Shown piece by piece: positions 1,755 through 59,334 of a stretch of 64,000 nt of DNA. How positions within the stretch are numbered: the first letter of the stretch is position 1; the number at the start of each line of letters is the position of its first letter. A model generated the notes under the pieces. It saw nothing but the letters and a program-made list of their open reading frames with translations, was not told where the DNA came from and did not search any database. The position numbers and the translations under genes are program-made. The stretch spans positions 1,536,001 through 1,600,000 of the forward strand of contig OZ244048.1 of assembly GCA_965215265.1 (NCBI GenBank), read 5' to 3'. Source of the DNA: Candidatus Poribacteria bacterium (GTDB lineage: Bacteria; Poribacteria; WGA-4E; WGA-3G).

Positions 1755-1840
1755 ATGATTCATAGCATAGATAACCTCAGACGAGATTTACACAGGACTT
1801 CACAAAACATAAACCTTTTAGGTACGGAGATATACGAAAA
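1755..1840 (+). repeat. Dispersed repeat unit, A arm
   Basis: atgattcatagcatagataacctcagacgagattt...ggtacggagatatacgaaaa, nearly identical to 4350-4435. Confidence 0.9.
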
Positions 1841-1977
1841 TAGATAGCTCTTCAGATCGATTAAAGGGAGTTGGGCTCCCACCCAAATCCCAAAACCCCG
1901 GTTGTGAGCCCTTGCAAGCAAGGAGTATACAACGGGGTTCATAACAGGATGAATTCTTTACGGAGATATACAAAAAT

Positions 1978-4119
1978 ATGATTCAAAACATAAACGGCTC
2001 CGAAATTTGTGCACTGACCCTCTGCATGGTGCTTTTCTTAATGCCGCTGTCCACCTCGGCGCAAACTGTTAATATCCCCGACGCGAACCTGCGTGCTGCC
2101 ATTGCAGAGGCACTTGGCAAAGCACCAGCCGCAACGATGACCGCGGATGAGATGGAAACTTTGACGCGGTTAGAGGCACCTGACAAAGGGATTCTTAATT
2201 TGACAGGGCTGGAGACTGCGAGAAATCTGGAAGAGATAAACCTTGACAACAATTTGATAACGGATTTATCGCCACTCACGGAATCCACCAGACTGCGTGG
2301 CATAGAGTTGAGACAGAACACGATCACAGATTTATCACCACTTTCAGAATTAATCAGCTTGACAGGACTAGCACTTGACTCTAATTTCATACGTGACCTC
2401 TCACCGCTGGCCGGATTAATCAATTTGAGATGGTTAGGTATTTCGGATAATATCATCTCCGATTTATCCCCCCTAGAGGGTTTGATAAAACTAGAGTCGA
2501 TATGGATGAGCGAAAACCCGCCCGTAGACCTGTCGCCTCTAGAAGGATTAATGAGTTTGACACGTTTCCACTCTTGGGGTACCCCCATACTAAACCTGGC
2601 ACCGCTTGCGGAATTGCCAAAGCTGAGAAAGATAGATATTTGTGGTGCTGGAATATCAGATCTCTCCGCTTTGGAAGGGGTAACGGGCTTAAAAGAACTG
2701 TATCTCGTCGGTAACAATATCTCAGACATCTCCCCGTTGGCGAGTTTAACACAGTTGACACGGTTGAGTCTTAAACATAACGAGGTATCGGATGTAAGAC
2801 CGCTTGCATCTTTGAGTAACTTGACATGGATAGAGCTTGAGGACAATGCGATATCAGACTTTTCGTCCTTGGATGTGTTTCCTGAGAATGTCACTATCCT
2901 TCGGCGCGACAACCCGGGATTCACACGCGCTGCACCGAAAATAGAGGGGCCGTGGTTGTGGGTTATAGTGTCAACAGAAGGAATGTCTGGTTCAAGAGCA
3001 GCAGCTTCTGGAAGAGATTTTCTGGAACATAGCAGTCAGAGTGCTGTAACAGAATTAGAAATTGCGACTCAGGGGGCGACAGAAGGCGATACTGTGGGGA
3101 ATAAAGTCTGGACAATCGGCAGACTCAGGAGAAAAGGGGGCAATAACATCAATGAATTGGTGAACGCTACAGGCCTGGGAACAGATGATATAAATCATCA
3201 TGTGGCTTATGGTCTGGTTACCTTGGACGCACCACGGGAGCAGAATACAAAGATGTTTGTTGGAAGCAGTGATGCTGTTAAGGTCTGGCTCAACGGAGAG
3301 TTGGTTCACGATAACCCTATAGACCGGGATGCTCATGGGTATCAAGAAAATTTCCCTGTCACGTTAAAACAAGGAACAAATATTTTGTTGGTTGCTGTTT
3401 ATGAGGGCGAAGGCTGGTGGAGCGGCTTTTTTGGCTTTGATGCTAGTGCAGACTATACAGTGCTTCTACCGGATACGCGAGTTAGGAGAGGACAGCCGCG
3501 TGTAGCAGATGTGAACGTGGATGGAGAGGTGAGCATTCTGGATCTGATTCTGGTAGCACGCGACTTGGAAAGAAACAAACCGCTTAACTTGCGAACAGAT
3601 ATAGACGGCGATGGAAAAGTCACTATCTCAGACCTGGACCTTGTGGCACAAAGTATGGACTCAATAACAGGTGCTGCCGCCCCTACCTCACTTGCGATGA
3701 ACGCCTATATTTCTTCAACAATGATACGCACGTGGATAGCACGTGCGCAGCTTGAAAACGACGGCTCGCTTCTCTTTGAGCAAGGCATAGCGAACCTGCG
3801 GCAACTTTTAGGAGACATGCTGCCCGAAAAGACACGGCTTCTGGCGAACTATCCGAATCCATTTAACCCTGAAACCTGGATACCGTATCAACTTGCACAA
3901 GCAACCCGTGTGCAGATCCGTATCTATGCGTCAAGTGGCACGTTAGTGCGCACCTTGGATTTAGGGCATCGGGCTGCAGGACACTATGAGCAGAAAAGCC
4001 GTGCCGCCTATTGGGACGGCCGCAATCAACTCGGTGAAGCTGTAGCAAGTGGTGTCTATTTTTACACATTATCTACAGCCGATTTCACGGGTACCGGCAA
4101 AATGCTCATCAGAAAGTAA
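1978..4119 (+). CDS. Secreted internalin-like LRR protein with dockerin-like domain and C-terminal FlgD-Ig/sorting-type domain
   Basis: Signal peptide, IPDANLRAAI cap, 22-aa LRRs, DVNVDGEVSILDL dockerin, NYPNPFNPETWIPY tail. Confidence 0.85.
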   Translation: MIQNINGSEICALTLCMVLFLMPLSTSAQTVNIPDANLRAAIAEALGKAPAATMTADEMETLTRLEAPDKGILNLTGLETARNLEEINLDNNLITDLSPLTESTRLRGIELRQNTITDLSPLSELISLTGLALDSNFIRDLSPLAGLINLRWLGISDNIISDLSPLEGLIKLESIWMSENPPVDLSPLEGLMSLTRFHSWGTPILNLAPLAELPKLRKIDICGAGISDLSALEGVTGLKELYLVGNNISDISPLASLTQLTRLSLKHNEVSDVRPLASLSNLTWIELEDNAISDFSSLDVFPENVTILRRDNPGFTRAAPKIEGPWLWVIVSTEGMSGSRAAASGRDFLEHSSQSAVTELEIATQGATEGDTVGNKVWTIGRLRRKGGNNINELVNATGLGTDDINHHVAYGLVTLDAPREQNTKMFVGSSDAVKVWLNGELVHDNPIDRDAHGYQENFPVTLKQGTNILLVAVYEGEGWWSGFFGFDASADYTVLLPDTRVRRGQPRVADVNVDGEVSILDLILVARDLERNKPLNLRTDIDGDGKVTISDLDLVAQSMDSITGAAAPTSLAMNAYISSTMIRTWIARAQLENDGSLLFEQGIANLRQLLGDMLPEKTRLLANYPNPFNPETWIPYQLAQATRVQIRIYASSGTLVRTLDLGHRAAGHYEQKSRAAYWDGRNQLGEAVASGVYFYTLSTADFTGTGKMLIRK

Positions 4120-4167
4120 TTTGTATATATCAGCACGTTACCCCCTGATGTGGCAGAATATCGTAGA

Positions 4168-4200
4168 TTGACATCCCGCCCGGAACCGGGCGGGAGTCAA
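4168..4200. repeat. GC-rich palindrome (terminator or REP-like)
   Basis: ttgac-a-tcccgcccgg-aa-ccgggcggga-gtcaa downstream of stop 4119. Confidence 0.55.
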
Positions 4201-4238
4201 CCGAACTTACCAACCCACTGGGAGCCTTTTGATGTTCT

Positions 4239-4435
4239 TTATTCATAACATAGAAAGCCTCGGACGAGATTTATGGAAGGGTTATCATAACATCAATCAC
4301 TGTTGGGCTCCTGTAGAGAAAAAAACGAAAAAAGGAGAGATACGAAAAGATGATTCATAGCATAGATAACCTCAGACGACATTTACACAGGACTTCACAA
4401 AACATAACCCTTTTAGGTACGGAGAGATACGAAAA
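4239..4435 (+). repeat. Two head-to-tail dispersed units (B arm then A arm)
   Basis: gacgagattt...gggctcctgtagagaaaaa followed by a copy of the 1755-1840 unit ending just before ATG 4437. Confidence 0.85.
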
Positions 4436-4436
4436 G

Positions 4437-7400
4437 ATGATGAAACAGATGAGAGCCTTCTACCTTCTTGTTGTTTTAACAGTTATCGCGCTAGGGGTTG
4501 GCACCGCTGATGCACAAAACCTCGCGCGACAGGCGTATGCTATCTTTGAACAAAACTGCCTGAACTGCCACGGCCCGCATGGTGCCTATACGGAGGAGCT
4601 CGTGATTGAATCCGCGCAAGGCTTGATTGATTCAGGCGTGGTGGTGCCGAGCAATGCTATCGGTTCGGAATTCTATCGCCGTTTGCTTGGCGATACGGAG
4701 AACGGTCTGCAGATGCCGTGGGGAAAACAGCCACTTTCGCCAGAAGCTATTGGAATAATCGGGGCCTGGATTTTAGCAGGTGCACCGAGCTGGGAGATTC
4801 AACACGATGTTGACTTCATTAGCACGGCTGATATGCTGAACACCATCCAAAGACATCTGGAGACGCTTTCCCCCTTCAACCGCCCCTTCGCGCGTTACTT
4901 TACGCTGACCCATCTCTATAACGCCGGCGAGCTGCCTGAGGCGCTGAGCGCCTACAAGATAGCCCTCTCTAAACTGATAAACAGCCTCTCGTGGGGGTTT
5001 GAGATTCACAATCCGGATGCCATAGGCCCGGCAGGGACGATATTCTACATAGATCTGCGGGACTATGAATGGGATACGAACGACGCATGGACATCGATAG
5101 AGCAGGTCTATCCGTATGCGATTGAGTTCGATGTTCAAACGCAAGCGCCGCTGCGTGACAAACTAATGCACCTCCGTGAAGAAATGGCTTGTGAGGTGCC
5201 GTATGTGTATGTCGATTGGTTCCTCGCGACGGCTGCCTTGCCGCCGCTCTATCACGATATCCTGGATCTGCCCCAAACCGACCGGGAGTTGGAGCGAAGG
5301 CTTGAGGTAGATGTGGCAAGGAATCTTCAGGCGGCACCGGGCGTGCGTGTGTGGCGTGCCGGGTTTAATGATTCCGGGGTGTCAAATCACAACCGCGTGG
5401 TTGAACGACACACGTCTCGGTATGGCGCATATTGGAAAAGCTACGACTTTGATGGGAGTGTAGGCACGCAGAATATCTTCACGCACCCATTGTCTTTCAG
5501 ACAGGATGGTGGTGAAGTCATCTTCAACTTGCCGAACGACTTGCAGGCATACTATATCTCGGATGAGTCTGGGAATAGGATAGATGTAGCGCCGACAACG
5601 ATAGTTTCTAATCCTGCGGCGAGAGATCCAGCAGTGCACAATGGGCTGTCGTGCATAGGGTGTCATACGGAAGGGATGAAGACGTTTGAGGATGGTGTGC
5701 GTTCTGTAGTACTCCAGGCGGGGAACCCACCGTTTGACAAAGAACAGGCGTTGCGTCTGTATGTTGAACAGGGCGAGATGGATGAGCTGGTGGCAGACGA
5801 TGCGAGGCGCTACAGTGAGGCGCTGAAGGAGACGGGTGGTGAACCTGGTGGGATTGAGCCTGTGCACCGTTTCTTTGAGGTGTATCAAGGTCCAGTTGAT
5901 GCGGCGTATGCTGCGGCATCGGTAGGCTTAAAAACTGGGGCGTTCCGGGAACAGATTCGTGCGAAGCCGAGTTTACAACGCCTGGGTTTGCTATCGCTAG
6001 TGGATGAGACGGGGAATGTGAAGCGTGATGCGTGGACGTCGCGTTTTCAGGAGATAGTGAGCGCGCTGAATTCCCCTGACGAGCCTGTTGTGACTCAGCG
6101 TGTGGTTGTGACACCGACGGGCACTTTTCACATCCCCGATGCGAACCTCCGTTCGGCAATTGCCGAAGCCCTCGGCAAAGCACCCGGTGCGGTGGTGACG
6201 GCGGAGGATATAGCAAGGTTAACGCGGCTTGATGCGGATGAAAGAGGCATCCGCGATTTGACAGGGCTTGAGGCGGCGACAAGACTGGAACGGATTGAAT
6301 GTCGTCATAATGCGATAGCCGACCTCTCCCCACTAGCCGGATTAACGCGTCTGAATAACATTAAACTGCGAGGGAACAGAATAACCGATGTATCGCCACT
6401 CGCCGACTTAATCAACGTGGACTGGCTGGGGCTTGAGGAGAACGCGATATCCGATTTATCTCCACTCAAAGGGTTAGTAAAATTGGACGGAATAGGGATT
6501 TCGGACAATCCTATATCGGATGTGTCGCCCCTTGCCAGTCTCATCAGCCTGGAAGGGATAAACGCTTGGCGTACCCATATTAACGACTTTTCCGTTTTGG
6601 CGAAGTTACCAAAGCTGGAGTGGATAGAATTTGGCGACAACAGAGCTATATCCGCATTGCCGTCTTTGAATGGATTAAAAGCGTTGAAACGACTGGAAAT
6701 CAATAACTGCAGCATCTCAGACCTCTCCGGGTTGGCGGAATTACAGCAACTGGAGTGGTTAACATTAGTTAATAACTTGATATCGGATGTGTCGCCATTA
6801 AGAGAGCTAAAAGACTTGAAACATCTGAATCTTGATGCTAACGTTATATCAGACGTGTCGCCGCTTGCAAAACTAACGCGGTTGGAAGTGCTGTACCTTG
6901 AGAACAACGTCATATCGGACACATCGCCGCTTGCAGGGTTAAACAACTTAGAACGGTTGGACCTTCGCAACAATGCGATACTCGACTTTTCGTCTTTAGA
7001 AGCATTACCTGATAAGACATTTATCCGGATGGACGGCAATCCGGGTTTCCCTTCGGGCGGTCCGAAAATAACAGGCCCCTGGTTATGGGCGATAGTACCG
7101 GGAATACGTCTTGATGACAACACAGATTTTCTGGCACGAGCAACGGGTGGTGCAGCGACAGAACTAAAGGTGGCTACCAACGGTGCAAAGGAAGGAAAGG
7201 CTGTGGGAGACAGCGTCTGGACACTTCACAAGCTGGCAGCTAGCGGTGGTAATAACATCAACCGAATGACAGATTCCCTTGGATGGGGGACAGGTGCAGA
7301 GATATATAACCATATCGTCTACGGTTCGGTTGTCTTGGATTCCCCGCATACACAAGAGACAACGATGCTGGTGGGTAGCGATGATGCAGTCAAAGTCTGG

Positions 7401-8651
7401 CTCAACGGAGAGTTGGTTCACCAGGCACTCGTTCATCGCGGGGCTGGCGATTATCAAGACTTTTTCCCCGTGACGTTGAAACAGGGGAAAAACGTGTTGT
7501 TGGTCGCGCTTGACAATCGTGGGCATGGCGGCTTTAGCGGCTTTTTCGGGTTTGCCTCAACTGCGAAATATGAAGTATTCCAACCGAGTCTCCGTTTTAT
7601 CTTTTCCACAGAGACGATGCAGGTCCAGGTCGGCGATACGTTTACCGTGCAGCTGAACGCCGAAAATGTCACCGATTTAGCCGGCTGGCAAACTGATATT
7701 GCGTTTGACTCCGCTGTGCTTGAAGCGGTTGAGGTGAGCGAAGGCGATTTTCTGAAAGCGGAGGGCGTAGATACCTTCTTTCAAGCAGGTGAGATTGATA
7801 ACAAAATCGGTAGAATTACCGGTTTAAACGCAGCGCGACTCTCCCACGCCACGTTGAGTAGACAAGGCACGCTGCTCTCGGTGAAATTCACCGCCATTGC
7901 AAGCGGAAAAAGCGGAGTGACACTGCCTAACTTTCAGGCAGGCTCCCGCGGCGGTCAGACAATCCCTTCGATACCGCCGGAGATGACCGTTGTTGTGGAG
8001 GGTTTGGGCACCCGCCCAAATCCTTCCTTACCTGCGTGGGATGTGAATCGAGATGGTGTCACGAATCTCGTGGATTTGATCCTGGTCGGGTCGGCGCTAG
8101 GGCAATTGCCTGTGAGGAATCCGCGAACAGATGTCAATGGGGATGGCGTTGTAGATGTGTTAGATCTCCAACTGGTTGCGGCACATTTTGGGGAAAGGAT
8201 GGTGCCGGCCGCGGCATCAAGCGCTACCTTGCCCGCGGATTTGACTGCGGAACAAGTGATATGGGTACTGAGTTTTTTACGAGATGCGGATGACGGTTCT
8301 GTTGGTTTAGAACGTGCGATTGCGAATCTCGAACAACTTTTAGGGGCGATGCTGCCGGAGAGAACCGCCCTGCTGGCGAACTATCCGAATCCATTTAACC
8401 CTGAAACCTGGATACCGTATCACTTGGCAACGAGTGCCGATGTGCAGATTCGTATCTATGCGTCGAGTGGGGCATTGGTGCGGACTTTGGATTTAGGACA
8501 TCAGGCTGCAGGACACTATGAGCAAAAAAGCCGGGCGGCGTATTGGGATGGAAAAAATGAAGCAGGTGAGGCTGTAGCGAGCGGTGTTTATTTTTATACG
8601 CTGTCTGCAGGCGATTTCACAGGTACCGGCAAAATGCTCATCAGAAAATAG
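4437..8651 (+). CDS. Secreted multidomain protein: c-type cytochrome (two CxxCH), LRR, cohesin, dockerin, C-terminal sorting-type domain
   Basis: CLNCH and CIGCH, LRR array, cohesin-like VGDTFTVQLNAENVTDLAGWQ, DVNRDG/DVNGDG; start moved to 4437 because 4350-4435 is repeat DNA and a signal peptide follows MMKQMR. Confidence 0.85.
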   Translation: MMKQMRAFYLLVVLTVIALGVGTADAQNLARQAYAIFEQNCLNCHGPHGAYTEELVIESAQGLIDSGVVVPSNAIGSEFYRRLLGDTENGLQMPWGKQPLSPEAIGIIGAWILAGAPSWEIQHDVDFISTADMLNTIQRHLETLSPFNRPFARYFTLTHLYNAGELPEALSAYKIALSKLINSLSWGFEIHNPDAIGPAGTIFYIDLRDYEWDTNDAWTSIEQVYPYAIEFDVQTQAPLRDKLMHLREEMACEVPYVYVDWFLATAALPPLYHDILDLPQTDRELERRLEVDVARNLQAAPGVRVWRAGFNDSGVSNHNRVVERHTSRYGAYWKSYDFDGSVGTQNIFTHPLSFRQDGGEVIFNLPNDLQAYYISDESGNRIDVAPTTIVSNPAARDPAVHNGLSCIGCHTEGMKTFEDGVRSVVLQAGNPPFDKEQALRLYVEQGEMDELVADDARRYSEALKETGGEPGGIEPVHRFFEVYQGPVDAAYAAASVGLKTGAFREQIRAKPSLQRLGLLSLVDETGNVKRDAWTSRFQEIVSALNSPDEPVVTQRVVVTPTGTFHIPDANLRSAIAEALGKAPGAVVTAEDIARLTRLDADERGIRDLTGLEAATRLERIECRHNAIADLSPLAGLTRLNNIKLRGNRITDVSPLADLINVDWLGLEENAISDLSPLKGLVKLDGIGISDNPISDVSPLASLISLEGINAWRTHINDFSVLAKLPKLEWIEFGDNRAISALPSLNGLKALKRLEINNCSISDLSGLAELQQLEWLTLVNNLISDVSPLRELKDLKHLNLDANVISDVSPLAKLTRLEVLYLENNVISDTSPLAGLNNLERLDLRNNAILDFSSLEALPDKTFIRMDGNPGFPSGGPKITGPWLWAIVPGIRLDDNTDFLARATGGAATELKVATNGAKEGKAVGDSVWTLHKLAASGGNNINRMTDSLGWGTGAEIYNHIVYGSVVLDSPHTQETTMLVGSDDAVKVWLNGELVHQALVHRGAGDYQDFFPVTLKQGKNVLLVALDNRGHGGFSGFFGFASTAKYEVFQPSLRFIFSTETMQVQVGDTFTVQLNAENVTDLAGWQTDIAFDSAVLEAVEVSEGDFLKAEGVDTFFQAGEIDNKIGRITGLNAARLSHATLSRQGTLLSVKFTAIASGKSGVTLPNFQAGSRGGQTIPSIPPEMTVVVEGLGTRPNPSLPAWDVNRDGVTNLVDLILVGSALGQLPVRNPRTDVNGDGVVDVLDLQLVAAHFGERMVPAAASSATLPADLTAEQVIWVLSFLRDADDGSVGLERAIANLEQLLGAMLPERTALLANYPNPFNPETWIPYHLATSADVQIRIYASSGALVRTLDLGHQAAGHYEQKSRAAYWDGKNEAGEAVASGVYFYTLSAGDFTGTGKMLIRK

Positions 8652-8652
8652 A

Positions 8653-8978
8653 TTTTTCGTCTACAGGAGCCCAATGACGCTCTATGTTTTTTAAAAACTT
8701 GTGCCTGTGGTGGTGCCCACCCGCCCTTTTCCAGTCTCTTCTTTCAGGAGAGAGGAGTTGGGCGGGTGGGCACCAAAAATCTCGTCTGAGCCTCTTTATG
8801 CTATGCCCAAGGAATCTCCGACGAGATTTACACACGAGCTATCAATAGCATAAGCGTTGATGGTACGGAGATATACAAAAAAGCGATGTTTAGATTCAAT
8901 ACATCAGGAGGCTCTGGCGAGATTTATACAGTAATTTACAAAACATAAACCTTTATGGTACGGAGATATACAAAAAAA
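8653..8978. repeat. Cluster of dispersed units: inverted B arm with nested palindrome, then two A arms
   Basis: ttttcgtctacaggagcccaa...aaatctcgtc, then two gagattt...ggtacggagatatacaaaa units; last ends at ATG 8979. Confidence 0.85.
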
Positions 8979-10550
8979 ATGAATGAAAAAAAAAGTGACA
9001 ATCTTAAACTTCTTTACGGAATTATCATCGCTATTGTTGCAGGTGCGCTTGTTGGGGGAGGGTTCCCAGGGGTAGCGGTGCATACGACGATACTCGGTGA
9101 AATTTTCTTAAACCTACTAAAAATGATAGTGATTCCATTGGTGATCTTCTCCATGATTACCGGTATCACGAATTTAGGCGACATTCGCCATATCGGTTCT
9201 ATCGGTGGTAGGACCGTGCTGTACTATATGGCAACCACGGGGCTCTCCGTGCTGGTGGGTATCCTTCTCGTCAACATTCTGCTGCCCGGCAAAGGCCTCT
9301 CGAAAGGTGAAGAGCATCCGGATTTGAATTATACGCTGAGCGGCGACATGTTGCAGAACGTCACATTAGCGGCTGAATTCAGTAGAAGTTATAACGACAA
9401 GTATGTCATCACCCTCACTGACCAGGGTGTCCGCGGTGAGTTAGGATCCATGTCGGGTACCACTGTCACCGTAAAATCATGGACACTACTGGATCCTGCT
9501 GCCAGATATGTGAGTACAGACAGTGGTGAACGTTTATTGTTCCTCGACGGGAAACCGGCCGAGATCCAACTTAACGCTAGTGGGCAAGGCGTTGACATCG
9601 GGCTTCCTATTGCTGGCAAAATACAAGACAAAAAAGAGCGGGATATGCTCAGCACCCTCAAGGAGGTGTTCCTCGGCAATCTGGAGACTGGAAAAGTGGG
9701 GATGATACCCGAAAATGTATTCAAGGCAATGGCTAATATGGATATTCTCCCCTTAATCTTTTTCTCAATACTTATCGGGGCCGCGCTTTCAGTACTCGGG
9801 GAGCCGGGGAAGCCTGTGATAGCGATGATTTCGGGGCTCAATGATGCCGTGATGCAGCTCGTTCACTGGATTATGTTTGTTGCCCCGGTCGGTATTTTCG
9901 GTCTCATTGCCGGCCGCATCGGAGAGGCAGATGGGTTTGTCGGTTTCTGGCCCGAACTCGTCGCCGTTGGAAAGTATAGTTTTACTGTACTACTAGGCCT
10001 CTCAATTCATGGAGCAATTGTCTTACCCGTAATACTCTTGCTGGTTGGTCGGAGAAATCCGTTAGATTATGTCAAGGGGATGGCAACGGCGCTCTTGAAT
10101 GCATTTTCAACCGCTTCTTCCAGTGCTACCTTGCCCCTCACGATGGAGGGAGTAGAGGAGGAGAACGGTATCTCAAATCGTACTTCGAGTTTTGTGCTGC
10201 CCTTGGGCGCCACAATTAACATGGACGGTACCGCATTATATGAAGCCATTGCAGTCATGTTCATTGCGCAGGTGTACGCGATAACGATGGAACCAGCGCA
10301 GCAGCTTATTGTTGTGCTGACTGCCACGCTTGCGGCGATTGGTGCAGCAGGAATCCCGGAGGCAGGCCTCGTCACAATGGTGATTGTGCTTCGTGCTGTC
10401 GATTTGCCGATTGAGGGAATTACCTTGATTCTCTCCGTGGATTGGTTGTTAGATCGGTTCCGGACGACTGTGAATGTTTGGGGCGATAGCATCGGGGCCG
10501 GTGTCATAGAGACATACGAACTGAAGGATTCTGTGGCAGAGAGTACTTAG
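8979..10550 (+). CDS. Dicarboxylate/amino acid:cation symporter (DAACS family)
   Basis: FSTASSSATLP and PLGATINMDGTALYE motifs; long soluble insertion after TM3. Confidence 0.92.
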   Translation: MNEKKSDNLKLLYGIIIAIVAGALVGGGFPGVAVHTTILGEIFLNLLKMIVIPLVIFSMITGITNLGDIRHIGSIGGRTVLYYMATTGLSVLVGILLVNILLPGKGLSKGEEHPDLNYTLSGDMLQNVTLAAEFSRSYNDKYVITLTDQGVRGELGSMSGTTVTVKSWTLLDPAARYVSTDSGERLLFLDGKPAEIQLNASGQGVDIGLPIAGKIQDKKERDMLSTLKEVFLGNLETGKVGMIPENVFKAMANMDILPLIFFSILIGAALSVLGEPGKPVIAMISGLNDAVMQLVHWIMFVAPVGIFGLIAGRIGEADGFVGFWPELVAVGKYSFTVLLGLSIHGAIVLPVILLLVGRRNPLDYVKGMATALLNAFSTASSSATLPLTMEGVEEENGISNRTSSFVLPLGATINMDGTALYEAIAVMFIAQVYAITMEPAQQLIVVLTATLAAIGAAGIPEAGLVTMVIVLRAVDLPIEGITLILSVDWLLDRFRTTVNVWGDSIGAGVIETYELKDSVAEST

Positions 10551-10678
10551 ATTCAAAACATAGAAAGGCTCAGGCGAGATTTATGCGAGGTTGCATATCA
10601 CATCTGTTGTGTTGTGCTGCAGTAGACGAAAGACGGTACGGAGATATACGAAAAGATGGTACCAAGATATACAAAAAA
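10547..10678 (+). repeat. B-arm unit plus duplicated A-arm ends
   Basis: ggcgagattt...gctgcagtagacgaaa then ggtacggagatatacgaaaa and ggtaccaagatatacaaaaaa. Confidence 0.75.
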
Positions 10679-12964: not shown

Positions 12965-12968
12965 CGTT

Positions 12969-50263: not shown

Positions 50264-50350
50264 TTTTCGTATATCTCCGTACCATCAACGCTTATGTCAT
50301 GAGTACTCGTGTGTAAATCTCGTCGGAGTTTTTCGATGCTATGAATCGTT
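50264..50350 (-). mobile_element. 87-bp intragenic A-arm insertion with AACG direct repeat
   Basis: cgtt at 50260-50263 and 50347-50350; separates SIAVN from ADQGATH. Confidence 0.85.
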
Positions 50351-51175: not shown

Positions 51176-53878
51176 TCAAAACTCATATATAATTCCGAAA
51201 GAGAAAAAGATGGGGAATTGGGGTATCTCCAGAGATTCATTGGCTTCTCTCCAGTCAAGTTCTTCCATGTCACTCTCATACTCTAACGTTTCGATGCCCT
51301 CTACCAATTGATCAGCAATGCTTAACCTTATTTTATTTCTGCTGTTGTAGACATTCAAGATTTCGATAAACGTCGTTATAGGGATTCCCCACCGCGTTGT
51401 TTTGCGACTGAAACGGAGATCCAAGCGGTTATAAGCCGGGAACTCTGTTGGCAAAATTGCACCTGTAACATCAGAGATGAGTGGGTGCATCCCCACCGTT
51501 ACAGGGTCCTGAACCATAATGAGGGTATTTAAGGGAACTGCGGTGGTACCACTAGAATATTGCCACCTCGCACCGATCTCCGTTTTAGTCGTTGGGTTGT
51601 AGTTGGCAACAATGCTAACAACGTGTGTGTTATCAAAGAGAAAAGGTTTGTAGCCATCTTCCGGTGTCTCACGTCGTTCGGCGTGGGTATAGGCATAAGA
51701 TACCCATCCGAAGAATTTTTCGCTCACGCGGTGCCGCAAGAACATCTCTGCTCCGCTCACAAACCCTTTTCCTTGATTGAGGTACGGTGTTGTAATCACG
51801 GTGTCCGATTCATCAAAAAGTGCCCCAAGATCTACGGATCGCGTGGCTAATTTTTGCATGTGTTTGTAGTAGAGTGAGAATTTGAGTTCTGTCTGCGGTG
51901 AGAGTTGATGTTCTAACTCCATGATATAATGCTGGGTTAGGCTTGATTTTAGCTTCCGGTTCCCCTCGGCCTTTAGGACCTGATATGCTAAGGGGCTCTG
52001 TTCATAGCTGCCGTAGGCGAACCGGAGGGTGGAAGTCGTTGGCAATGTGACGCTAAGGCTTCCACGCGGCTGAATTGAGAGTTCATCTGTCAAATTGAGA
52101 TAATCAAACCGCACACCGATTGCCATTGACAGAAATGAGAACAGATCATAGCGTCCTTGTAGGTATCCCTCGGCACGCCGAAACGCGTAATTAAATTCGT
52201 CGTGTTTTTGGCCCCATGACGGTTCCTCATCATCATCAAAATCTACGGTTGCTAGGAAAGTGGTGCGTGCGAGACTCTTGGCTGGACTAAATGCAAGGAG
52301 AAATCCTGGCTCAAATTGAAGTGTCGGTGTTAATTGGTAAAACACGTCTTCGCGAAGCGTATACATAGGGGTGTTAACCTTGACATTGTAGATGAATTCT
52401 TCGTTCTCAGCGCTGTCGTCTTGACTTGAGGCATCCTTGAAATTGACATTGAGAAAATTGTGAGAACGTGTGAGGGAGAGATAGGACGTGAGTTTATCAG
52501 TGAAATTAGAGCGGAGATGGATGCCTTCTGCTTCAAACCCGTTTTTGAAATATGCAGAAAAATCACCGGTGTCTTCGATATCTTCTGACCTAAAATTAGA
52601 GAAGTCAAAAAAATCTGTGGCTCCCAAACCGTTGAGCGTGAGGTGATGCTTTTTCGTGAGTTGATAAGCAAATTTGAGTTGATAGTCAGACCAGTTTGGA
52701 AATGTCCAATCAACAAAACGCCCTAAAATGAGATCGAGTGTGGTGAATCGCCCTGCAATGGATGCGTACCCCTTGTTGCCAATTTTGGCTCCAACGAAAC
52801 CAGAGGGTGAAAAAATGTTCAGGTCGAGCGTGCCTGTTAGCCTCTTTTTCAACTCTTCACGCGAACGGATGTCAATAACCGATTGTGAATCCAATCCAAA
52901 TTCGGCACCGTAGCCGCCAGCATAGATGCGAATGTCTTCAATACTATTTGAGTTAATCGTTGAGATAATGCCGCCAAAATGGAACGGATAGCCGACCGGG
53001 GTTCTATCTAAATACATGAGCGTTTCCCCCGGCGCACTTCCACGGATATAGAGGATTCCGAAGATATCGTTGGGGATACCGATGCTCGGCAGCGTCGTGA
53101 GCCCTTTGAGTGCATCACGCCCTATGCCGGGAATCCGTATCAGTTCGCTACCTTGAATCTGCTTTCGGCTAATCGTCGGCCGGAGGCGTTGGCCCTCCAC
53201 CACAACTGTTTCTAGCTTTGCCACTGTCCCGAGATATACTTTCACCTGTGTAGTCTCGCCTGCTGTTACCTCTATTGTCGTAGCCATCGGTGTCTTATAC
53301 GCTGCATGTGTGATGGACAGGGTGTAGGTGTCAGGCGCGATGTCTGTAAACTGAAAGTTTCCGGAAGCATCTGTTTTTCTGGACACGTTGATTTCGACAA
53401 GGAGGCTCTCTGCCTCGGCAAGAGGCTTCCCTGTTGTTTGGTCATAGACATAACCGTCGATATCCCCGTTATTGGTGGCTTTCACAAACGTAACCGCTGT
53501 ACCGGGGTAAAATCTTCCGCGGAGCGTCTCGCCCGCACGAATCTCAATCAGAATCTCTGTGGGTGTACTATAGATGGGATGGGATATGGAGAGTGTATAT
53601 GTTCCGGTAGGAATTTCGGTAAACCGAAATGTTCCGTCTTCATCTGTTTTTTGGGACTCCTCAATCTCAACGAGGTGCACCTCAGCTTCAACTAACGGTG
53701 TAGCGGGGTCGTGCTGGAGGACTGTGCCTTCTATATCACCTGTGTGCGGAAAAACCCGCTGCCAGATGCTTTTTTTCGTTTTTGAGGTCTTGTCTTTTTT
53801 AGTATCGTCCGTTTCGGCAAAAACAGAGAACGTTACCATGAGCACTACAAACAGAACTAGATATGAACAAAATTTCAT
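51176..53878 (-). CDS. TonB-dependent receptor with two carboxypeptidase-regulatory-like domains
   Basis: Signal peptide, duplicated GDIxG.V repeats, plug (LYIRG, YAGGYGAEFG), barrel ending in F. Confidence 0.88.
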   Translation of the reverse strand: MKFCSYLVLFVVLMVTFSVFAETDDTKKDKTSKTKKSIWQRVFPHTGDIEGTVLQHDPATPLVEAEVHLVEIEESQKTDEDGTFRFTEIPTGTYTLSISHPIYSTPTEILIEIRAGETLRGRFYPGTAVTFVKATNNGDIDGYVYDQTTGKPLAEAESLLVEINVSRKTDASGNFQFTDIAPDTYTLSITHAAYKTPMATTIEVTAGETTQVKVYLGTVAKLETVVVEGQRLRPTISRKQIQGSELIRIPGIGRDALKGLTTLPSIGIPNDIFGILYIRGSAPGETLMYLDRTPVGYPFHFGGIISTINSNSIEDIRIYAGGYGAEFGLDSQSVIDIRSREELKKRLTGTLDLNIFSPSGFVGAKIGNKGYASIAGRFTTLDLILGRFVDWTFPNWSDYQLKFAYQLTKKHHLTLNGLGATDFFDFSNFRSEDIEDTGDFSAYFKNGFEAEGIHLRSNFTDKLTSYLSLTRSHNFLNVNFKDASSQDDSAENEEFIYNVKVNTPMYTLREDVFYQLTPTLQFEPGFLLAFSPAKSLARTTFLATVDFDDDEEPSWGQKHDEFNYAFRRAEGYLQGRYDLFSFLSMAIGVRFDYLNLTDELSIQPRGSLSVTLPTTSTLRFAYGSYEQSPLAYQVLKAEGNRKLKSSLTQHYIMELEHQLSPQTELKFSLYYKHMQKLATRSVDLGALFDESDTVITTPYLNQGKGFVSGAEMFLRHRVSEKFFGWVSYAYTHAERRETPEDGYKPFLFDNTHVVSIVANYNPTTKTEIGARWQYSSGTTAVPLNTLIMVQDPVTVGMHPLISDVTGAILPTEFPAYNRLDLRFSRKTTRWGIPITTFIEILNVYNSRNKIRLSIADQLVEGIETLEYESDMEELDWREANESLEIPQFPIFFSFGIIYEF

Positions 53879-53879
53879 G

Positions 53880-54112
53880 TTTTTGTATATCTCCGTACCA
53901 TCAACGTCTATGTAATGATAGCTCGTGTGTAAATCTCGTCGGAGCCGTTCGACGTTTTGACTCTAAATATCACCTTCCTCCTCCTCCGTATCTTCACCGC
54001 TTATCGCTTTTTTGTATATCTCCGTACCATCAACGTCTATGTAATGATAGCTCGTGTGTAAATCTCGTCGGAGCCGTTCGATGTTTTGACTCTAAATATC
54101 ACCTTCCTCCTC
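53880..54112 (-). repeat. Two tandem A-arm units, 129-bp period
   Basis: gtatatctcc at 53885 and 54014; proximal copy ends 1 nt before ATG 53878. Confidence 0.92.
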
Positions 54113-54265
54113 CGTTTTCAGTTTTGTTGCCTGCCGCCGCGGCTTGGATGAGGTAAATTCACTCAAGCTGGGACAGGAATATTCTCTGATTTCGATTAAT
54201 CGTGGAATACTTCCATCAATTGAATCTGTTTCGAACTTAAATTGGTTGTAATGATCGAATTGGGT

Positions 54266-54829
54266 TTATTCAAAATTCTCTCTGTTCAAATCAAATGAAA
54301 ATTGCCCGAAAACCTTTGATTTACTGACAATTTCATCTTCATCTGAATCAACCAGTTTGCCTTTGAAGTTAAGTTCACCACCGCTATTATGGGAAAACTC
54401 TCCTGTCAAAAGGTAGGTACTGCCAGCTTCTACATCAGCAGAAAATCTGGATAGGATTTGACGATCACTCGGTGTGTTTTCATGGAAAGACTCGTATATG
54501 ATGAGTAATGACATCTCATATTTTCCGGGATCGACCAAAATCTCGTCGATAGCGAGCTCTTCATACGCGTCAATTTTCTGACGCAAGGCTAACTTGCCAT
54601 CAATTCTGAACACAATCAGATTGGGACGTTGGATCCACTGTCCGTCCGTGTCGATTTTGATAGTAGCGAGTGAGGATTTTGGTAGCTGTGCTACTTTATA
54701 CTCACTCTCTCGCATTAAAAGTGTACCACACCCGGTAAGTAGCGAAACTAGGAGCACAGCCGCTAATAGAATAGAGAGTTTTGTGCTGATATTATCAAGA
54801 TAGAAGTGTATAAATTTGACGCGTTTCAT
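54266..54829 (-). CDS. Putative lipoprotein
   Basis: LLTGC lipobox; GGAGG upstream. Confidence 0.7.
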   Translation of the reverse strand: MKRVKFIHFYLDNISTKLSILLAAVLLVSLLTGCGTLLMRESEYKVAQLPKSSLATIKIDTDGQWIQRPNLIVFRIDGKLALRQKIDAYEELAIDEILVDPGKYEMSLLIIYESFHENTPSDRQILSRFSADVEAGSTYLLTGEFSHNSGGELNFKGKLVDSDEDEIVSKSKVFGQFSFDLNRENFE

Positions 54830-54855
54830 TTTTTCCTCCCCTAAGTTTAAGTGAG

Positions 54856-54953
54856 GGTTTTTCGTTAATAATGGGACGATGGGTCCTCATGATGTCACCG
54901 CCGACATCCGTTTTTGTTTGCACGGTTTTTCGTTAATAATGGGACTATGGGTC
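54856..54953. repeat. Two 30-bp direct repeats with a 38-bp spacer
   Basis: ggtttttcgttaataatgggac(g/t)atgggtc at 54856 and 54924. Confidence 0.85.
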
Positions 54954-55144
54954 TCTCCCAAGCCTTAGCGTATTGCATTTGAGCCCTTTTGCAAAAAGTA
55001 TAAGATAAGTCGCAAAAAATATCAAGAAAAATCAGTTTTTTTATACATGAAAGCGATAAGGCGTGCTTAGCGTGAACGGACTCGTGCCCATTTCGCCAGA
55101 ACTGCTTTGGCCGGATTTTTTCTTCATAGATAGAGACGCATACG

Positions 55145-55322
55145 TTTTTTTGTATATCTCCGTACCATCAACGTCTATGTAATGATAGCTCGTGTGTAAA
55201 TCTCGTCGGAGACTCCTTAGGTAATGTCTTTAAAATCATAACATCAAACGGCTCCGACGAGATTTGTAAGGGATTCAAAATAGCAGCAGCCTGGATTGGG
55301 CACCTGTAGACAAACAAAAAAA
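55145..55322. repeat. Complete inverted A/B pair
   Basis: tttttgtatatctccgtacc...aaatctcgtc...gacgagattt...gggcacctgtagacaaa. Confidence 0.9.
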
Positions 55323-55554
55323 ACGGAATCATCAACGAAAAACGACGCTAGAAATGTAAGCGCTGCTACGTCCCATGCAAACACAGCACATCACGCGGCA
55401 GAATGCCCGTAGAACGCAGATGAACTGTCTTTATCTACTGTCATGGACTTTCGGCTCTCTCCAAACTGCAAGCCTCCGATGGAGCCACAAGTTCAGCACT
55501 CAACACGCACAACCGTCGCTACTGTACCTTCATCTACCTATGTTAGGATTCCTA

Positions 55555-56610
55555 TCAACTCGCCTGTAATCGTCGAATTCGGGCAGGCGTGTCGTCATTC
55601 CGAATCTCGGAAGAGAGGATTCGGAGGTGCAGGTCTTGAATAGGGAGATTTACCTTTACGCCGCCCCGGCGGTGCGATTCGTGCAGTGCGACGGCAATCT
55701 CTAACGCGGCACGTACGTCTTCACCGGAACATTTCGGGGAGTTCTCGTTTTCAATGGCGTTAATCAAATCGGCGACAATCGTTAGTCCCATGCCTTGCAT
55801 TCTGACAGGCAGTGGGAAGGGGCACTTTGCCGGCACTCCGCGTCCGCGTCGTCCGCCGGGAACCATACGGATTAATTCAAAGGTTTCGGCATTGTTATTC
55901 GTATAGTGCAGCCCGCAACAAGGCTGCTGCTATATTAAACCCTTTACAAATCTCGTCGGAGGGTTCCGATGTTTAGATTCAATACATCAGGAGGCTCTGG
56001 CGAGATTTATACAGTAATTTACAAAACATAAACCTTTATGGTACGGAGATATACGAAAAATTGAACGGGTACGCCCGGTTGTGCCGATAACATCGACTTC
56101 CCAGGGTGCTGCCCCACATGCGGTACTGCGTAGATATGCGCGTACGCCGTTATCAAAAACGAGGTAACCGTTTCCCGAGAGATCGTTTTCATCGGCGGCG
56201 GCTTCATCGGATTCCATTTCGCAGAAAACCCATTTGACATTTCCGCCTGCCATGTAGCGAAGAATATCAATGGCGTGACTGCCGTTATGGGAGAGCCCAC
56301 ATTGGGCATACACGGTCACTTGCAGCACGTTGCCGATTTCATCAGCGTCAATTAATCTACGGGCTTCGCTAAAGAACGGATTCCAGCGGCGCACACAATT
56401 TATCGCCAAGGCGACACCTTCTGTGCGGCACGTCGCCACCATCGCATCTGCTTCAGCAAGACTAAGCGAAATCGGTTTTTCTGCCCAAATTGCTTTGACA
56501 CCTGCACGGGCAACATCTTTCACAATAGTAGCCCGAATTCTTGATGTGGTGCAAACGCTGACGATGTCCAAATTCTCTTTCGTCAGCATCTCTTGATAAT
56601 TGTTGTAAAG
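55555..56610 (-). pseudogene. Gfo/Idh/MocA oxidoreductase, 5'-truncated and interrupted
   Basis: LDIVSVCT, AEKP, HNGSHAID; same-frame C-terminal ORF 55555-55866; Rossmann N-terminus missing. Confidence 0.85.
55898..56059. mobile_element. 162-bp intragenic insertion (inverted B/A pair)
   Basis: Removal joins cgt tca att aac aat gcc (RSINNA); A arm essentially identical to 8884-8977. Confidence 0.85.
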
Positions 56611-56781
56611 GTTTTTCGTATACTGCAGCCCAATAAAGGCGGCTGCAATGTTAAAACCTTTACAAATCTCGTCAGAGCCGTTTATGTCTACGATTTTAAA
56701 GACTATACCTAGATAACCTCCAGCGAGATTTACACACGAGCCATCAAAATCATAGGCGTTGATGGTACGGAGATATACGAA
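56611..56781. repeat. Complete inverted B/A pair at the truncation point of the oxidoreductase
   Basis: tttttcgtatactgcagccc...aaatctcgtc...gcgagattt...ggtacggagatatacgaa. Confidence 0.9.
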
Positions 56782-56826
56782 CGGTATCAGCTTCTCAAAC
56801 ATAATTTAGTCAGAGTTAGAAAAAGA

Positions 56827-57810
56827 TTATTTTGATTCTTGAAAAAGAAGCAGCTGAACAGATTGAGCTCGGCTTGTATCCGCTGAATTCTGCTTCTCTT
56901 CAATGTAAGCGCGAAGGCAACGGGCAACATACTCAGCTTGTTTGACTGGTACGGCGTTTCCAATCATCTGCTCCACATCGGTTTTGGAGCCAGAAAAATG
57001 AAAATTTTTCGGAAAGGTTTGGAGATAACTCCGTTCCAAGGTTGTGAGTGGACGGACTCCGGCTGAAATTGGAGCCGTGTCTTTTGGATGTGTTTTGTAA
57101 GTTTTAGGAATTGGGCGATTGACTCCTCGAACCGTTGGACTCGGTTCATCAACGCTAAAAACGGCGCGTCGGCTATAGTTGCGAGGATGCCGGTAATAGT
57201 GAGCTATGCCGAGGCTGTCTCCCAAATAATCCCGTACTGTTATGGGTATCGTCGTCAACTGGTCATCCAGATAACTTCCAAGGGCTCTTCGTTCTTCAGT
57301 TGTCTCAAAGGATATTCCCAACTCGCCAATCAGAAAAAGCCGTTTTCGCCTTTGGGGCACCCCACACCGGTTTGCCTCTAAAATCCGCTGCGTCAGCGAA
57401 TATCCAGCCGCTCTTAAAATCTCATCTGCACGACGATATCGTAGACTTTTTACGGTGCGTTCTACATTTTCCATGACAAACCACTGTGGCTTGGTGTGTG
57501 CTACAATCTGTGCAAAGTTCACGGTGAGGTCTGCTCTACCTAATTCCTCATTGCGTTTTCCTGCGTGTGAAAAATCTTGACAGGGTGGTCCGCCAATAAG
57601 CATGTCAAATTGATACGCATTTAGTGTTTTTAAGGTCTGCTGCCATTTGCTGAGATCGCATTCGTGTATTTTATGTGCAAAATTATCTCGGTAAACTTGT
57701 ATTGCTGGGTGCCAGTTATCAAAAGCAGCAACGGCATCAAATCCGGCATTTTGGAATCCGAGCGTCATGCCGCCGCATCCTGCAAAGAGATCTATGAATT
57801 TTAGTGCCAT
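56827..57810 (-). CDS. C5-cytosine DNA methyltransferase
   Basis: FAGCGG, GGPPCQDFS, ENV, PQRRKR, QMIGNAVP. Confidence 0.95.
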   Translation of the reverse strand: MALKFIDLFAGCGGMTLGFQNAGFDAVAAFDNWHPAIQVYRDNFAHKIHECDLSKWQQTLKTLNAYQFDMLIGGPPCQDFSHAGKRNEELGRADLTVNFAQIVAHTKPQWFVMENVERTVKSLRYRRADEILRAAGYSLTQRILEANRCGVPQRRKRLFLIGELGISFETTEERRALGSYLDDQLTTIPITVRDYLGDSLGIAHYYRHPRNYSRRAVFSVDEPSPTVRGVNRPIPKTYKTHPKDTAPISAGVRPLTTLERSYLQTFPKNFHFSGSKTDVEQMIGNAVPVKQAEYVARCLRAYIEEKQNSADTSRAQSVQLLLFQESK

Positions 57811-57828
57811 TTGTTATTTCTCCTTTTT

Positions 57829-58926
57829 TTACATAAAGATTTCTGGAGAATTAGCCAGAATCGCATCAAAACGTCTCTCTGGGCTTAGCAGCTTCTCGCC
57901 TTGGCCAAGGATAATATGTTTAATTTCAGTTTTGCGGATTCTAGGATGTAAAAGTTCTGCACAGGACATATATGGTTGTATCTTTCTTCCACTCAGGGCA
58001 AAAGCTTTGTCTGTTTGTCTAGAGAATCCAGCACTTACAGTCTGTGTATCAATTTTCCCATCTGTAGAGAAATCAGTAAGCATTTTCATCATCCACAAAA
58101 CCGCTCGCTTTGCTCGTGAGAGTTTTCTAGAATGTCCGTGTTCAGCTGCGTCCAAAAGTAACTTTGCAAAAGCGAACGCACTCCAAACAAAAGCGTCCAA
58201 ACAGTGCTCGTGAAGCCGTGAGAATTTTCCAACAGTCTTCCAAATGGGTTGTATAACTAAGGGTGTTTGATCCTCTATCTTTGTAAGTAACAGATGCCTG
58301 ATAGTTTGGATAATATGTGGCATTTTCTTCAATATGTTATCTTCTGCTTCCCAGCCAAAGTTATTTTGAAACATGGGTCGTAGTATCTCTAAAAACTCTC
58401 TTTGGTGTTCGGCATATTTGGCAACAATCTCAAGTGTTAGATGAATAATTGTATTGGGCCGAGTTACAAGTTCACAACCATACTGTTCCTCAGAAAGATT
58501 ACAAGTTGAATTATCAGGCAAAGCTGTCAATTTAATTTCCAGAGCGCGTAGCCATGGGTTCACAGAATTAGAATTATCCATTACGACGCAATCAATCCGA
58601 GGTAAGGTGCCTTTGACAAACTGCTGATTTTTCCCATAAGTATACTCAAAGGCAAAGAAAATGTCCTGAGAGTCATAGGGATGTCCAAAGATGGAATTCA
58701 CATCAACCTTCTTATGAACAAGATCCGAATTCCTATCTAAAACCAAGTAGATAGGGGCAATATTTAGACTTTGCATGTAACATAATAATGAAATAGGAAA
58801 ACAGTTATTAAAGCTATTCTTGCCCCATGCTTTTGCGTGCCTGAAATCCTTGTTTGTGTTAAGTTGATTTAAACCAAATAGGGCGGGTGTACCGCTAACT
58901 GATGTCGATTCCATTAAATTCCTCAT
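57829..58926 (-). CDS. Type II restriction endonuclease, HindVP-like
   Basis: PALFGL...WGKNSFNNCFP, EIKLTALPD, LSPERRFDA; adjacent to the C5 methyltransferase; visibly AT-rich. Confidence 0.8.
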   Translation of the reverse strand: MRNLMESTSVSGTPALFGLNQLNTNKDFRHAKAWGKNSFNNCFPISLLCYMQSLNIAPIYLVLDRNSDLVHKKVDVNSIFGHPYDSQDIFFAFEYTYGKNQQFVKGTLPRIDCVVMDNSNSVNPWLRALEIKLTALPDNSTCNLSEEQYGCELVTRPNTIIHLTLEIVAKYAEHQREFLEILRPMFQNNFGWEAEDNILKKMPHIIQTIRHLLLTKIEDQTPLVIQPIWKTVGKFSRLHEHCLDAFVWSAFAFAKLLLDAAEHGHSRKLSRAKRAVLWMMKMLTDFSTDGKIDTQTVSAGFSRQTDKAFALSGRKIQPYMSCAELLHPRIRKTEIKHIILGQGEKLLSPERRFDAILANSPEIFM

Positions 58927-59169
58927 TATGTTTCAAGTAGCAAACTCCGCTAGCAAAGAGTCTCTATTCCTCCTCACGGTACTTTGAACTCCGGCCGGAT
59001 TCCGCGCATCTGCCATACATCGATGCCGTGTCTCTTGCCTTTATCATTGCAGATGGTCAAGAGACTATCCGGCAGCCGAAGGAACCGTGGTTAATTCTGC
59101 CGTGAATTTGTAGATTGTTCGATCGTATTCACCTATATAATAGTGAACAGAAGGTTTATGACTAAACAG

Positions 59170-59334
59170 ATTTTTTGTATATCTCCGTACCATCAACGCC
59201 TATGTAATGATAACTCGTGTATAAATCTCGCCAGTGGCAGGGCAGGATAGGTAATCTTTTCTCATGGACAAAAAAAGAATACCTTTTACCTGCCACCCAC
59301 TGGGAGCCATTCTAGATTATGATTCTTCAATCAC
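59170..59334 (-). repeat. A arm split by a nested ~70-bp insert
   Basis: ...aaatctcgccag | tggcagg...cctgcca...ggg | agccattctagattatgatt; flanks are contiguous in the 122-bp tandem unit. Confidence 0.8.

Follow-up and report, generated by a model that had tools for sequence, protein, structure and literature searches.

A lineage-restricted family of modular intergenic mosaic repeats in a Candidatus Poribacteria genome

A 64,000-nt stretch of a Candidatus Poribacteria genome (GenBank assembly GCA_965215265.1, contig OZ244048.1, positions 1,536,001 to 1,600,000; hereafter the window) carries a short repeat that occurs as single ~90-bp arms, as head-to-head pairs of arms (doublets), and as head-to-tail arrays. 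We consider it probable that these repeats are a lineage-restricted family of modular, non-coding, interspersed mosaic elements, comparable to bacterial interspersed mosaic elements (BIMEs) and BOX elements, that is non-autonomous, self-targeting, and partly co-opted as gene leaders. Arms and doublets would be non-autonomous selfish DNA, copied by a trans-acting enzyme that recognizes a conserved box, and perhaps the tail that closes each arm, at fixed spacing. Insertion would proceed without target duplication, often beside or into resident copies, and the host would later use some outward tails as leaders of downstream genes. The family is best filed as a variety of the known interspersed mosaic intergenic repeats, namely BIME and repetitive extragenic palindromic (REP) sequences, BOX, and MITE-like elements (MITE, miniature inverted-repeat transposable element), with unusual details. 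Coordinates are those of the window unless marked as genome coordinates.

The source genome is a metagenome-assembled genome consisting of a single 4.83-Mb contig with 48% G+C. Using an nhmmer profile built from 308 strict genome copies, we found 35 copies, whole or partial, between 1755 and 59249 of the window, where the original prediction had counted about 30. At E ≤ 1e-3 the whole genome holds 835 profile matches totaling 62,930 bp (1.3% of bases), which bears out at genome scale the abundant, modular, non-coding family with fixed geometry that had been described from the window. The predicted conserved (G/A) box, RCGAGATTT, occurs 32 times in the window; shuffled sequences contain it 1.61 times on average and 7 times at most, none of 100 shuffles reaching 32. 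Genome-wide there are 693 boxes and 47 occurrences of the reversed motif. Repeats are densest at 1.0 to 1.9 Mb and 4.0 to 4.6 Mb, and their orientation follows no pattern along the genome. GC skew is weak, and 200-kb bins display no clear replichore pattern in GC skew or gene orientation.

The possibility that the copies are assembly artefacts, raised with the prediction, was addressed with contigs from four other runs (four studies). These contigs span unique DNA at high identity and stop at the repeats, and in them the summed depth of repeat-bearing bins is 10 to 25 times higher. Because independent contigs break at the copies and depth rises there, the repeats are no artefact of the present assembly; short-read assemblies break at every copy. 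The repeat had not been recognized as a described family, and nothing we searched contradicts this: Rfam gave no match at gathering score across the window and, at E ≤ 1 within 53800–56900, one chance-level match outside the repeats; the family matched nothing among plasmids or phages; and a full-text literature search returned no paper on an interspersed repeat family in Poribacteria.

The arm extends from about −28 to +62 relative to the box and comprises, in order, a head of ~28 nt, the invariant box CTCnG-ACGAGATTT, a 41-nt variable core, and a tail of TATAC(A/G) plus an A-run. The head is weakly conserved and of three types, each with a quasi-palindromic centre at its end. Scattered fixed positions mark the core (ACA, TT, CA, ACAT, T.AT, and G..C), and the A-run measures 3 to 8 nt (mode 5), mirrored as a T-run in doublets. 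Across the genome, 378 copies have TA[TG]AC[AG]A starting 49 to 51 nt past the box start, 305 of them at precisely 50 nt. The gap between box and TATAC, put at 47 to 48 bp in the original prediction, is corrected by these measurements to 41 nt from the box end, or 50 nt start to start. The two arm types that had been proposed were recovered among 670 arms with a complete core, as type A (GGTACGGAGATATAC; 251 arms) and a heterogeneous type B (GGGCTnnnnTATAC and similar; 352 arms). The further idea that the A arm consists of two ~44-bp subrepeats reduces to a resemblance of the box to the type-A tail. Outside the fixed motifs, the mean pairwise identity of strict copies is 52.5%, and their length is nonetheless fixed.

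Single arms do not fold beyond chance. Their mean folding energy is −15.07 kcal/mol, compared with −14.96 in shuffles, on either strand, and RNAalifold applied to 120 of 304 unique copies returned no consensus structure on either strand. A covariation scan of all column pairs yielded no helix; two stacked pairs (14–34 and 15–33) emerged, and both track the split into A and B subfamilies. The stable stem-loop expected of a REP-type or BOX-type unit is not predicted for single arms.

Neighboring copies stand in a small set of registers. Box-to-box distances in head-to-tail orientation are 60 to 62 nt in 107 of 230 adjacent pairs, 87 to 88 nt in 15, and 122 nt in 7, the end of one tail being the exact start of the next 61-nt box-to-tail unit. 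In head-to-head orientation the distances have peaks at 36 (n = 13), 44 (n = 43), and 51 to 52 nt (n = 59), each of these registers having its own quasi-palindromic centre consensus (three types); the resulting doublets span 150 to 175 bp, with both tails facing out to the flanking genes. The tail-to-tail orientation is limited to 17 pairs. When arms lie 300 to 4000 bp apart, the +/− arrangement (123 cases) far exceeds −/+ (3 cases), and genes are therefore bracketed by inward-pointing tails, whichever direction the gene runs. Cluster architectures are headed by lone arms (− 135, + 118), followed by −+ (75), ++ (28), −− (23), and longer mosaics. The order of a head followed by one to several 61-nt cores matches, as an analogy only, the architecture of BOX-type modular repeats, and extragenic mosaic clusters with alternating orientation and fixed linkers are present as in REP/BIME systems.

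The composition of these clusters argues for assembly unit by unit. Neighbors in the 61-nt register are less than 70% alike in 61 of 87 cases, and for 60 of these the closer relatives of each unit are found elsewhere. Combinations are non-recurring in 28 of 37 informative head-to-tail pairs and in 43 of 73 doublets. Since adjacent units are mostly unrelated and their combinations mostly unique, the mosaics are not local duplications. Doublet arms are less alike than random arms (0.414 versus 0.474), none exceeding 70%. Of 111 doublets, 3 are A–A, against ~16 predicted by the type frequencies, a depletion compatible with long perfect palindromes being selected against. The mosaics would arise either by insertion of arms at set points within resident ones or by reshuffling of arms through recombination at the conserved box and tail.

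Evidence of mobility came from scanning the genome for sites at which both flanks of a repeat cluster are contiguous elsewhere. A 173-bp doublet at genome 817241–817413 has no counterpart at two paralogous sites (CCAT^AAATC), and no bases are duplicated; a single arm with its head, at genome 2303313–2303403, is missing from its paralogue, likewise without target duplication. In one paralogous leader family, four copies carry differing arms at two positions, with short tail fragments intermixed, which adds to the independent insertions. Near-identical relatives (≥95% outside fixed motifs) exist for 66 of the 308 strict copies, and for 36 of the 66 they lie more than 100 kb away. The paralogous insertions and distant near-identical copies, set beside the low mean identity, indicate an old and diverse family in which copying is ongoing or recent. 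The sole strain difference seen is at 50054–50346, where 89 nt in another run take the place of two arms and a spacer in the window. The doublet at 817 kb lies just upstream of one member of a four-copy sequence (near genome 547.6, 817.4, 1394.5, and 4828.5 kb) that begins with a perfect-looking promoter, TTGACA-N17-TATACT, and continues as conserved non-coding DNA. We dropped an initial view that this doublet had landed exactly at a start codon, as the open reading frame (ORF) listing has no long ORF there.

The original prediction had offered two mechanisms, one of them a MITE whose arms also move singly. Under the classical form of that model, a doublet is an internally deleted DDE-type insertion sequence (IS), its arms are the long inverted ends, and single arms are decayed halves. 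Doublets do have inverted outer ends (TTTTTGTATAC...GTATACAAAAA), a whole doublet was inserted as a unit, and the genome contains broken fragments of IS630-type (DDE_3) transposases. Against this stand the lack of target-site duplication in both clean paralogous comparisons (a small sample) and the insertion of a single arm alone. Inverted ends are lacking in single arms. Within a doublet, the two arms are less alike than random arms, A–A doublets are depleted, most arm combinations are unique, and no intact DDE transposase was found in the genome with the four DDE families searched. We regard a classical MITE as very unlikely, and the strict form of that prediction fails on the missing duplication, the heterotypic arms, and the missing transposase.

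The second proposed mechanism, retro-copying in the manner of a short interspersed nuclear element (SINE), would begin at a nicked target, where an arm RNA is reverse-transcribed starting at its A-rich 3′ end, and would yield fixed 3′ ends, ragged 5′ ends, and stacking behind A-runs already present. In its favor, 754 of the 835 matches run to the model's 3′ end while their 5′ starts scatter, 5′-shortened units are stacked directly behind tails, and the genome encodes one reverse transcriptase. That enzyme, the single RVT_1 match, is part of a bAvd-RT cassette next to a target gene of FGE type, 4 kb away from the nearest repeat, and by its gene content belongs to a diversity-generating retroelement of standard layout. 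The A-run is just 3 to 8 nt long and is mirrored in doublets, a doublet with two opposed tails was inserted as one unit, and target duplications are lacking. Detection accounts for part of the 5′ bias, the head being poor in information, and a shortened copy at an orthologous site in a related species (below) fits deletion rather than truncated insertion. On these grounds the SINE-like reading, too, falls away, and we hold it to be extremely improbable. The retroelement itself looks complete: it occupies genome 1418596–1422237, with the C terminus of an FGE-sulfatase-type target, the bAvd accessory gene, and a 354-aa reverse transcriptase, and is followed by two Rpn/Transposase_31 genes.

Movement of REP sequences or REPINs by a RAYT (Y1 HUH) transposase would account both for extragenic mosaic clusters with alternating orientation and fixed linkers, as described for BIMEs in PMC2817692, and for insertion without target duplication. 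The genome nevertheless has no match to Y1_Tnp (PF01797) at E ≤ 0.001, in a search whose control was positive in 6 of 14 genomes. The arms are not palindromic by the folding energies given above, and the unit is 61 to 90 nt rather than 20 to 40. We give this explanation almost no credence.

Two relatives share the family in diverged form, one of the same genus (G001) and one of another genus (G004). The strict box-to-tail pattern occurs 261 times in the source genome and not at all in 40 relatives. A sequence-only model, with 104 candidates scored per genome, identified at least 18 diverged copies in G001 and at least 43 in G004. Copies in both retain CTCCGACGAGAT, the ~50-nt spacing, the 61-nt arrays, and the head-to-head doublets, whereas their cores and tails differ (GACGAAAA, ATAGACAAAA). 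A 12-mer of the box is found 239 times in the source genome, 161 times in G001, and 40 times in G004, and no more than 8 times in any of the other 173 Poribacteria genomes, so that it is enriched in 3 of 176. Conservation of box, spacing, and 61-nt unit across two genera while core and tail diverge leads us to infer that the box is a recognition site. In G001, decayed or shortened copies occupy two orthologous gaps, one separating the symporter and AI-2E transporter genes and the other the AI-2E transporter gene and der. It follows that some insertions are older than the divergence of the two species and that raggedness of the 5′ end is at least in part due to deletion. At the der loci of 60 relatives the profile gave no match at E ≤ 10, with a decayed copy visible by eye in one relative.

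Copies are concentrated between genes, 755 of the 835 matches lying outside crude gene cores, and they fill intergenic space right up to start and stop codons. In co-directional gaps 398 copies point with the genes and 213 against them; convergent gaps hold 85 copies and divergent gaps 59. The highest density per kb is that of convergent gaps (85 copies in 82 kb). Of 382 copies, 41 have an ATG-led ORF of at least 80 aa whose start is no more than 15 nt from the tail, compared with 6 of 382 in the antisense control and ~4% for random positions, and tail ends also cluster near stop codons, with a peak 3 to 8 nt away. The two tail types are distributed unequally: GGAG-bearing type A and type B stand at 43:36 beside starts and 11:30 beside stops (odds ratio 3.3, p = 0.006). 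Because of this enrichment of GGAG-bearing tails at start codons, some copies probably now provide the downstream gene with its 5′ leader or ribosome-binding region. Only about one fifth of outward tails face a start codon, and truncated (25/84) and full (72/352) copies do not differ significantly in start adjacency (p = 0.08). The use of outward tails as leaders or for ribosome binding is likely secondary.

A host-maintained module would turn this order around. Box and tail would then be binding or processing sites at fixed spacing, for instance for a nucleoid or regulatory protein or an RNA-processing enzyme, or the arm would be a leader or ribosome-binding cassette, in each case persisting by selection on each copy. 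Constant length despite low identity, conservation of the box and 61-nt unit across two genera, occupied orthologous sites in G001, the orientation bias with transcription, and the apposition of tails, GGAG-type tails above all, to start codons are all compatible with such a module. Pointing the other way, density is greatest in convergent gaps and stop codons, too, have tails against them; a repeat-rich 20-kb stretch has no excess of sigma-70-like sites (27 versus 27.7 expected); no conserved fold was found; and the downstream genes have unrelated functions (Der GTPase, dicarboxylate symporter, a homocysteine methyltransferase/MTHFR fusion, leucine-rich repeat (LRR) proteins, helicase, and transporters). 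Clean insertions relative to paralogous empty sites also argue against it, as does enrichment in only 3 of 176 Poribacteria genomes, from which it follows that the phylum does not need the family. We find the host-module explanation doubtful.

Several observations nonetheless weigh against mobile, selfish mosaic repeats as the preferred reading. Fixed length at 52.5% identity also fits per-copy selection for a host function, and occupancy of the two orthologous sites in the sister species means that many copies are old and retained. The filled/empty evidence consists of paralogous sites within one genome, not of alleles; a metagenome scan for closer strains met no Der identity above 72%, and hence no allelic empty sites. 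The strain difference at 50054–50346 could be plain recombination between direct repeats. The Pfam-family searches reported here found no mobilizing enzyme in the genome, although the search for Y2 (IS91) transposases had no working positive control. Besides Y1_Tnp, the TnpB-type, IS110, rve, and IS256-type (Transposase_mut) families had no genome matches, DDE_Tnp_1 had four weak ones, and DDE_3 was represented by four broken fragments. Serine recombinases comprised one intact small gene and one broken one. The one tyrosine recombinase match is interrupted by a stop: it is the only Phage_integrase-family match, at genome 4117565–4118038, with an internal TGA, and the same Pfam model finds no intact Xer-type recombinase.

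Candidate partner genes fared no better, three of them failing to co-occur with the repeats across relatives. The 24 Rpn/Transposase_31 genes lie kilobases from repeats in 22 of 24 cases and were not found in G001, a genome that does have the repeats, and the intact serine recombinase, which sits beside a doublet, was found in neither G001 nor G004. A 319-aa DUF4351-like family, a candidate "transposase family protein", has 42 genome matches, and 5 of 7 copies have a repeat upstream; most repeat-free relatives contain it in abundance, and it was not found in G001. More broadly, the Rpn/Transposase_31 and DUF4351-like families abound in most related genera, and neither was found in the 4.0-Mb G001. 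A 10-copy family with a downstream repeat, considered as the mover, was identified as a DNA methylase. No gene family lies between head-outward arms, and of three head-outward pairs the one that we opened (genome 2326611–2327981) holds an ordinary 572-aa ORF; head-outward arms and DDE-family searches together disclosed no parent IS with matching ends in the genome. We also rejected an integron attC array: the sole Phage_integrase match has an internal stop, repeats flank genes in inverted orientation, and the flanking gene order is kept in relatives that lack full copies.

A bolder version of the preferred reading is that the arms are substrates of a new DNA-copying or recombination system, in which a protein reads two sites some five helical turns from each other, the CTCCGACGAGATTT box and the tail, and 61-nt or ~90-nt units are inserted without target duplication, precisely at tail ends or head centres of copies already in place. 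Mosaics would then be built unit by unit under this CTCCGACGAGATTT-box-reading system, with the host afterwards reusing outward tails as leaders. If true, it would amount to new transposition or recombination chemistry, or to a new use of a known nuclease family. On the evidence from sequence that we have assembled, we think this unlikely.

Within the window the copies display each of these arrangements. A full type-A arm lies at 1755–1841 (+; model positions 7–93, score 65.6). Head-to-tail pairs, as predicted, were located at 4235–4437 and 8792–8977. The first consists of a full type B-like arm at 4235–4326 (+; model 4–95, score 55.3) and a full type-A arm at 4351–4437 (+; model 8–94 and sequence) whose tail continues into the ATG of an LRR gene; the second joins full type-A arms at 8792–8884 (+; model 4–95, score 67.8) and 8887–8977 (+; self-comparison and profile). 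This last arm is 99% identical to 55971–56061, in agreement with the predicted near-identity of distant copies (8884 versus 55967, 99%). Directly past the stop of the ORF at 4350–8651 lies a 5′-shortened arm (8652–8703, −; model 43–94). Three further arms, identified by the profile, precede genes: a full type-B arm at 10546–10633 (+) with an extra type-A tail fragment ahead of the AI-2E transporter ATG, a type-A arm at 12880–12965 (+) ending 3 nt ahead of the der ATG, both with decayed orthologues in G001, and a full arm at 15932–16019 (+) ending at the ATG of an SNF2/PLD helicase gene. A 61-nt core unit from the box onward (19469–19530, −; model 33–94) has a 5′-shortened unit stacked behind it (19533–19576, −; model 50–93), which meets another 5′-shortened unit tail to tail (19571–19616, +; model 49–94). 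A full type-B arm lies at 36805–36894 (+; model 5–94) and an arm without most of its head at 40848–40915 (+; model 27–93).

Inverted pairs were located at all five predicted positions (38737, 45188, 55144, 55895, and 56610). The first doublet has a type-B left arm at 38737–38827 (−; self-comparison and profile) and a right arm at 38822–38911 (+; profile) whose tail lies ahead of the ATG of the homocysteine methyltransferase/MTHFR gene; over 38825–38909 it is 100% complementary to 45191–45275, another distant match that had been noticed. In the second, a left arm at 45188–45280 (−) and a type-B right arm at 45272–45363 (+) were found by the profile, and a type-A 61-nt core unit at 45131–45189 (−; model 33–91) is stacked on the tail of the left arm. 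The remaining doublets, all from the profile, pair type A with type B at 55144–55236 (−) and 55227–55316 (+), the whole doublet recurring at genome 817241–817413; type B with type A at 55895–55985 (−) and 55971–56061 (+), box to box 44; and type B with type A at 56610–56701 (−) and 56694–56781 (+). The predicted tandem arrays are represented by one with a 122-bp period at 42810–43665 (−), in which five full arms (42931–43509) are 98 to 100% identical and the end units diverged. Full type-A arms from the profile lie 212 nt apart at 50050–50139 (−) and 50261–50348 (−), and 129 nt apart at 53878–53968 (−) and 54006–54097 (−); the latter two are 99% alike, and the tail of the first of them abuts the ATG of a 900-aa CarboxypepD_reg/Plug gene. 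The series ends with a type-A arm with shortened head at 59170–59249 (−; model 15–94).

The 39 ORFs of the window were scanned against Pfam and included neither a transposase nor a reverse transcriptase, in line with the original prediction. A GFO_IDH_MocA oxidoreductase ORF at 55987–56802 (−), with its Pfam match starting at profile position 45, has repeat arms at both ends and looks truncated or re-headed by repeats. Restriction-modification genes adjoin repeat clusters at 19569–22927 and 56827–58926; they include an MmeI/Eco57I-like type IIG enzyme apparently split over two ORFs and a HindVP endonuclease with a C5 cytosine methylase, and several methylase families are multi-copy in the genome. 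A 932-aa protein at 26231–29029 contains three FGE-sulfatase domains, encoded by ~800-bp internal DNA repeats that are 80 to 87% identical, and a single-domain FGE paralogue 20 kb away (47950–48876) has 71 to 78% identity. FGE-type domains are common to the 932-aa protein and the target of the diversity-generating retroelement.

Poribacteria are uncultivated sponge symbionts whose complete genomes are recent, and in this lineage the repeat family would have rewritten many gene leaders. A rigid 61-nt unit across genera, non-folding arms, insertion without target duplication, unrelated units in exact register, and no recognizable transposase set the family apart from standard classes, and it is therefore a reasonable place to seek a new mobilizing enzyme. 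The repeats could also be a strain-typing marker for sponge symbionts. Were the family an inactive relic, it would be an ordinary example of bacterial junk repeats.

Matus-Garcia et al. in 2012 reportedly described putative mobile promoters, or repeat-borne leaders. The Poribacteria repeats resemble these in that unrelated genes have near-identical upstream sequence ending a few bases ahead of the start codon; they differ in that a start codon is faced by only about one fifth of outward tails and that no promoter consensus was found in the arm. Correia/NEMIS elements of Neisseria are small, AT-rich, non-coding MITEs, long in their inverted ends and present in hundreds of copies that can supply expression signals. 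The likeness to these elements in size, AT-richness, non-coding nature, copy number in the hundreds, and possible expression signals for neighbors draws partly on general background and partly on PMC3049150. Differences are that no target duplication was observed, that doublets are heterotypic, that single arms move alone, and that no parent IS was found.

BIMEs are clusters of REP sequences in which unit types alternate in orientation with fixed linkers, as set out in PMC2817692. With the BIMEs of enterobacteria and pseudomonads the Poribacteria family shares high copy number, extragenic location, few unit types, fixed linkers, lack of target duplication, and restriction to a species or clade. 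Its units, in contrast, are 61 to 90 nt long and non-palindromic, no RAYT gene was found, and the tails have genes between them, which makes tail-to-tail junctions rare. BOX elements of Streptococcus pneumoniae have the form boxA-boxB(n)-boxC and are predicted to form a stable stem-loop RNA, according to PMC3049150. At the level of architecture and description, both families are modular and intergenic, with an inner module that varies in tandem number (here the 61-nt core), both affect the leaders of neighboring genes, and in both the mobilizing mechanism is unestablished. Unlike BOX, the Poribacteria arms have no stable fold, and their adjacent 61-nt units mostly belong to unrelated subfamilies rather than being local duplicates.

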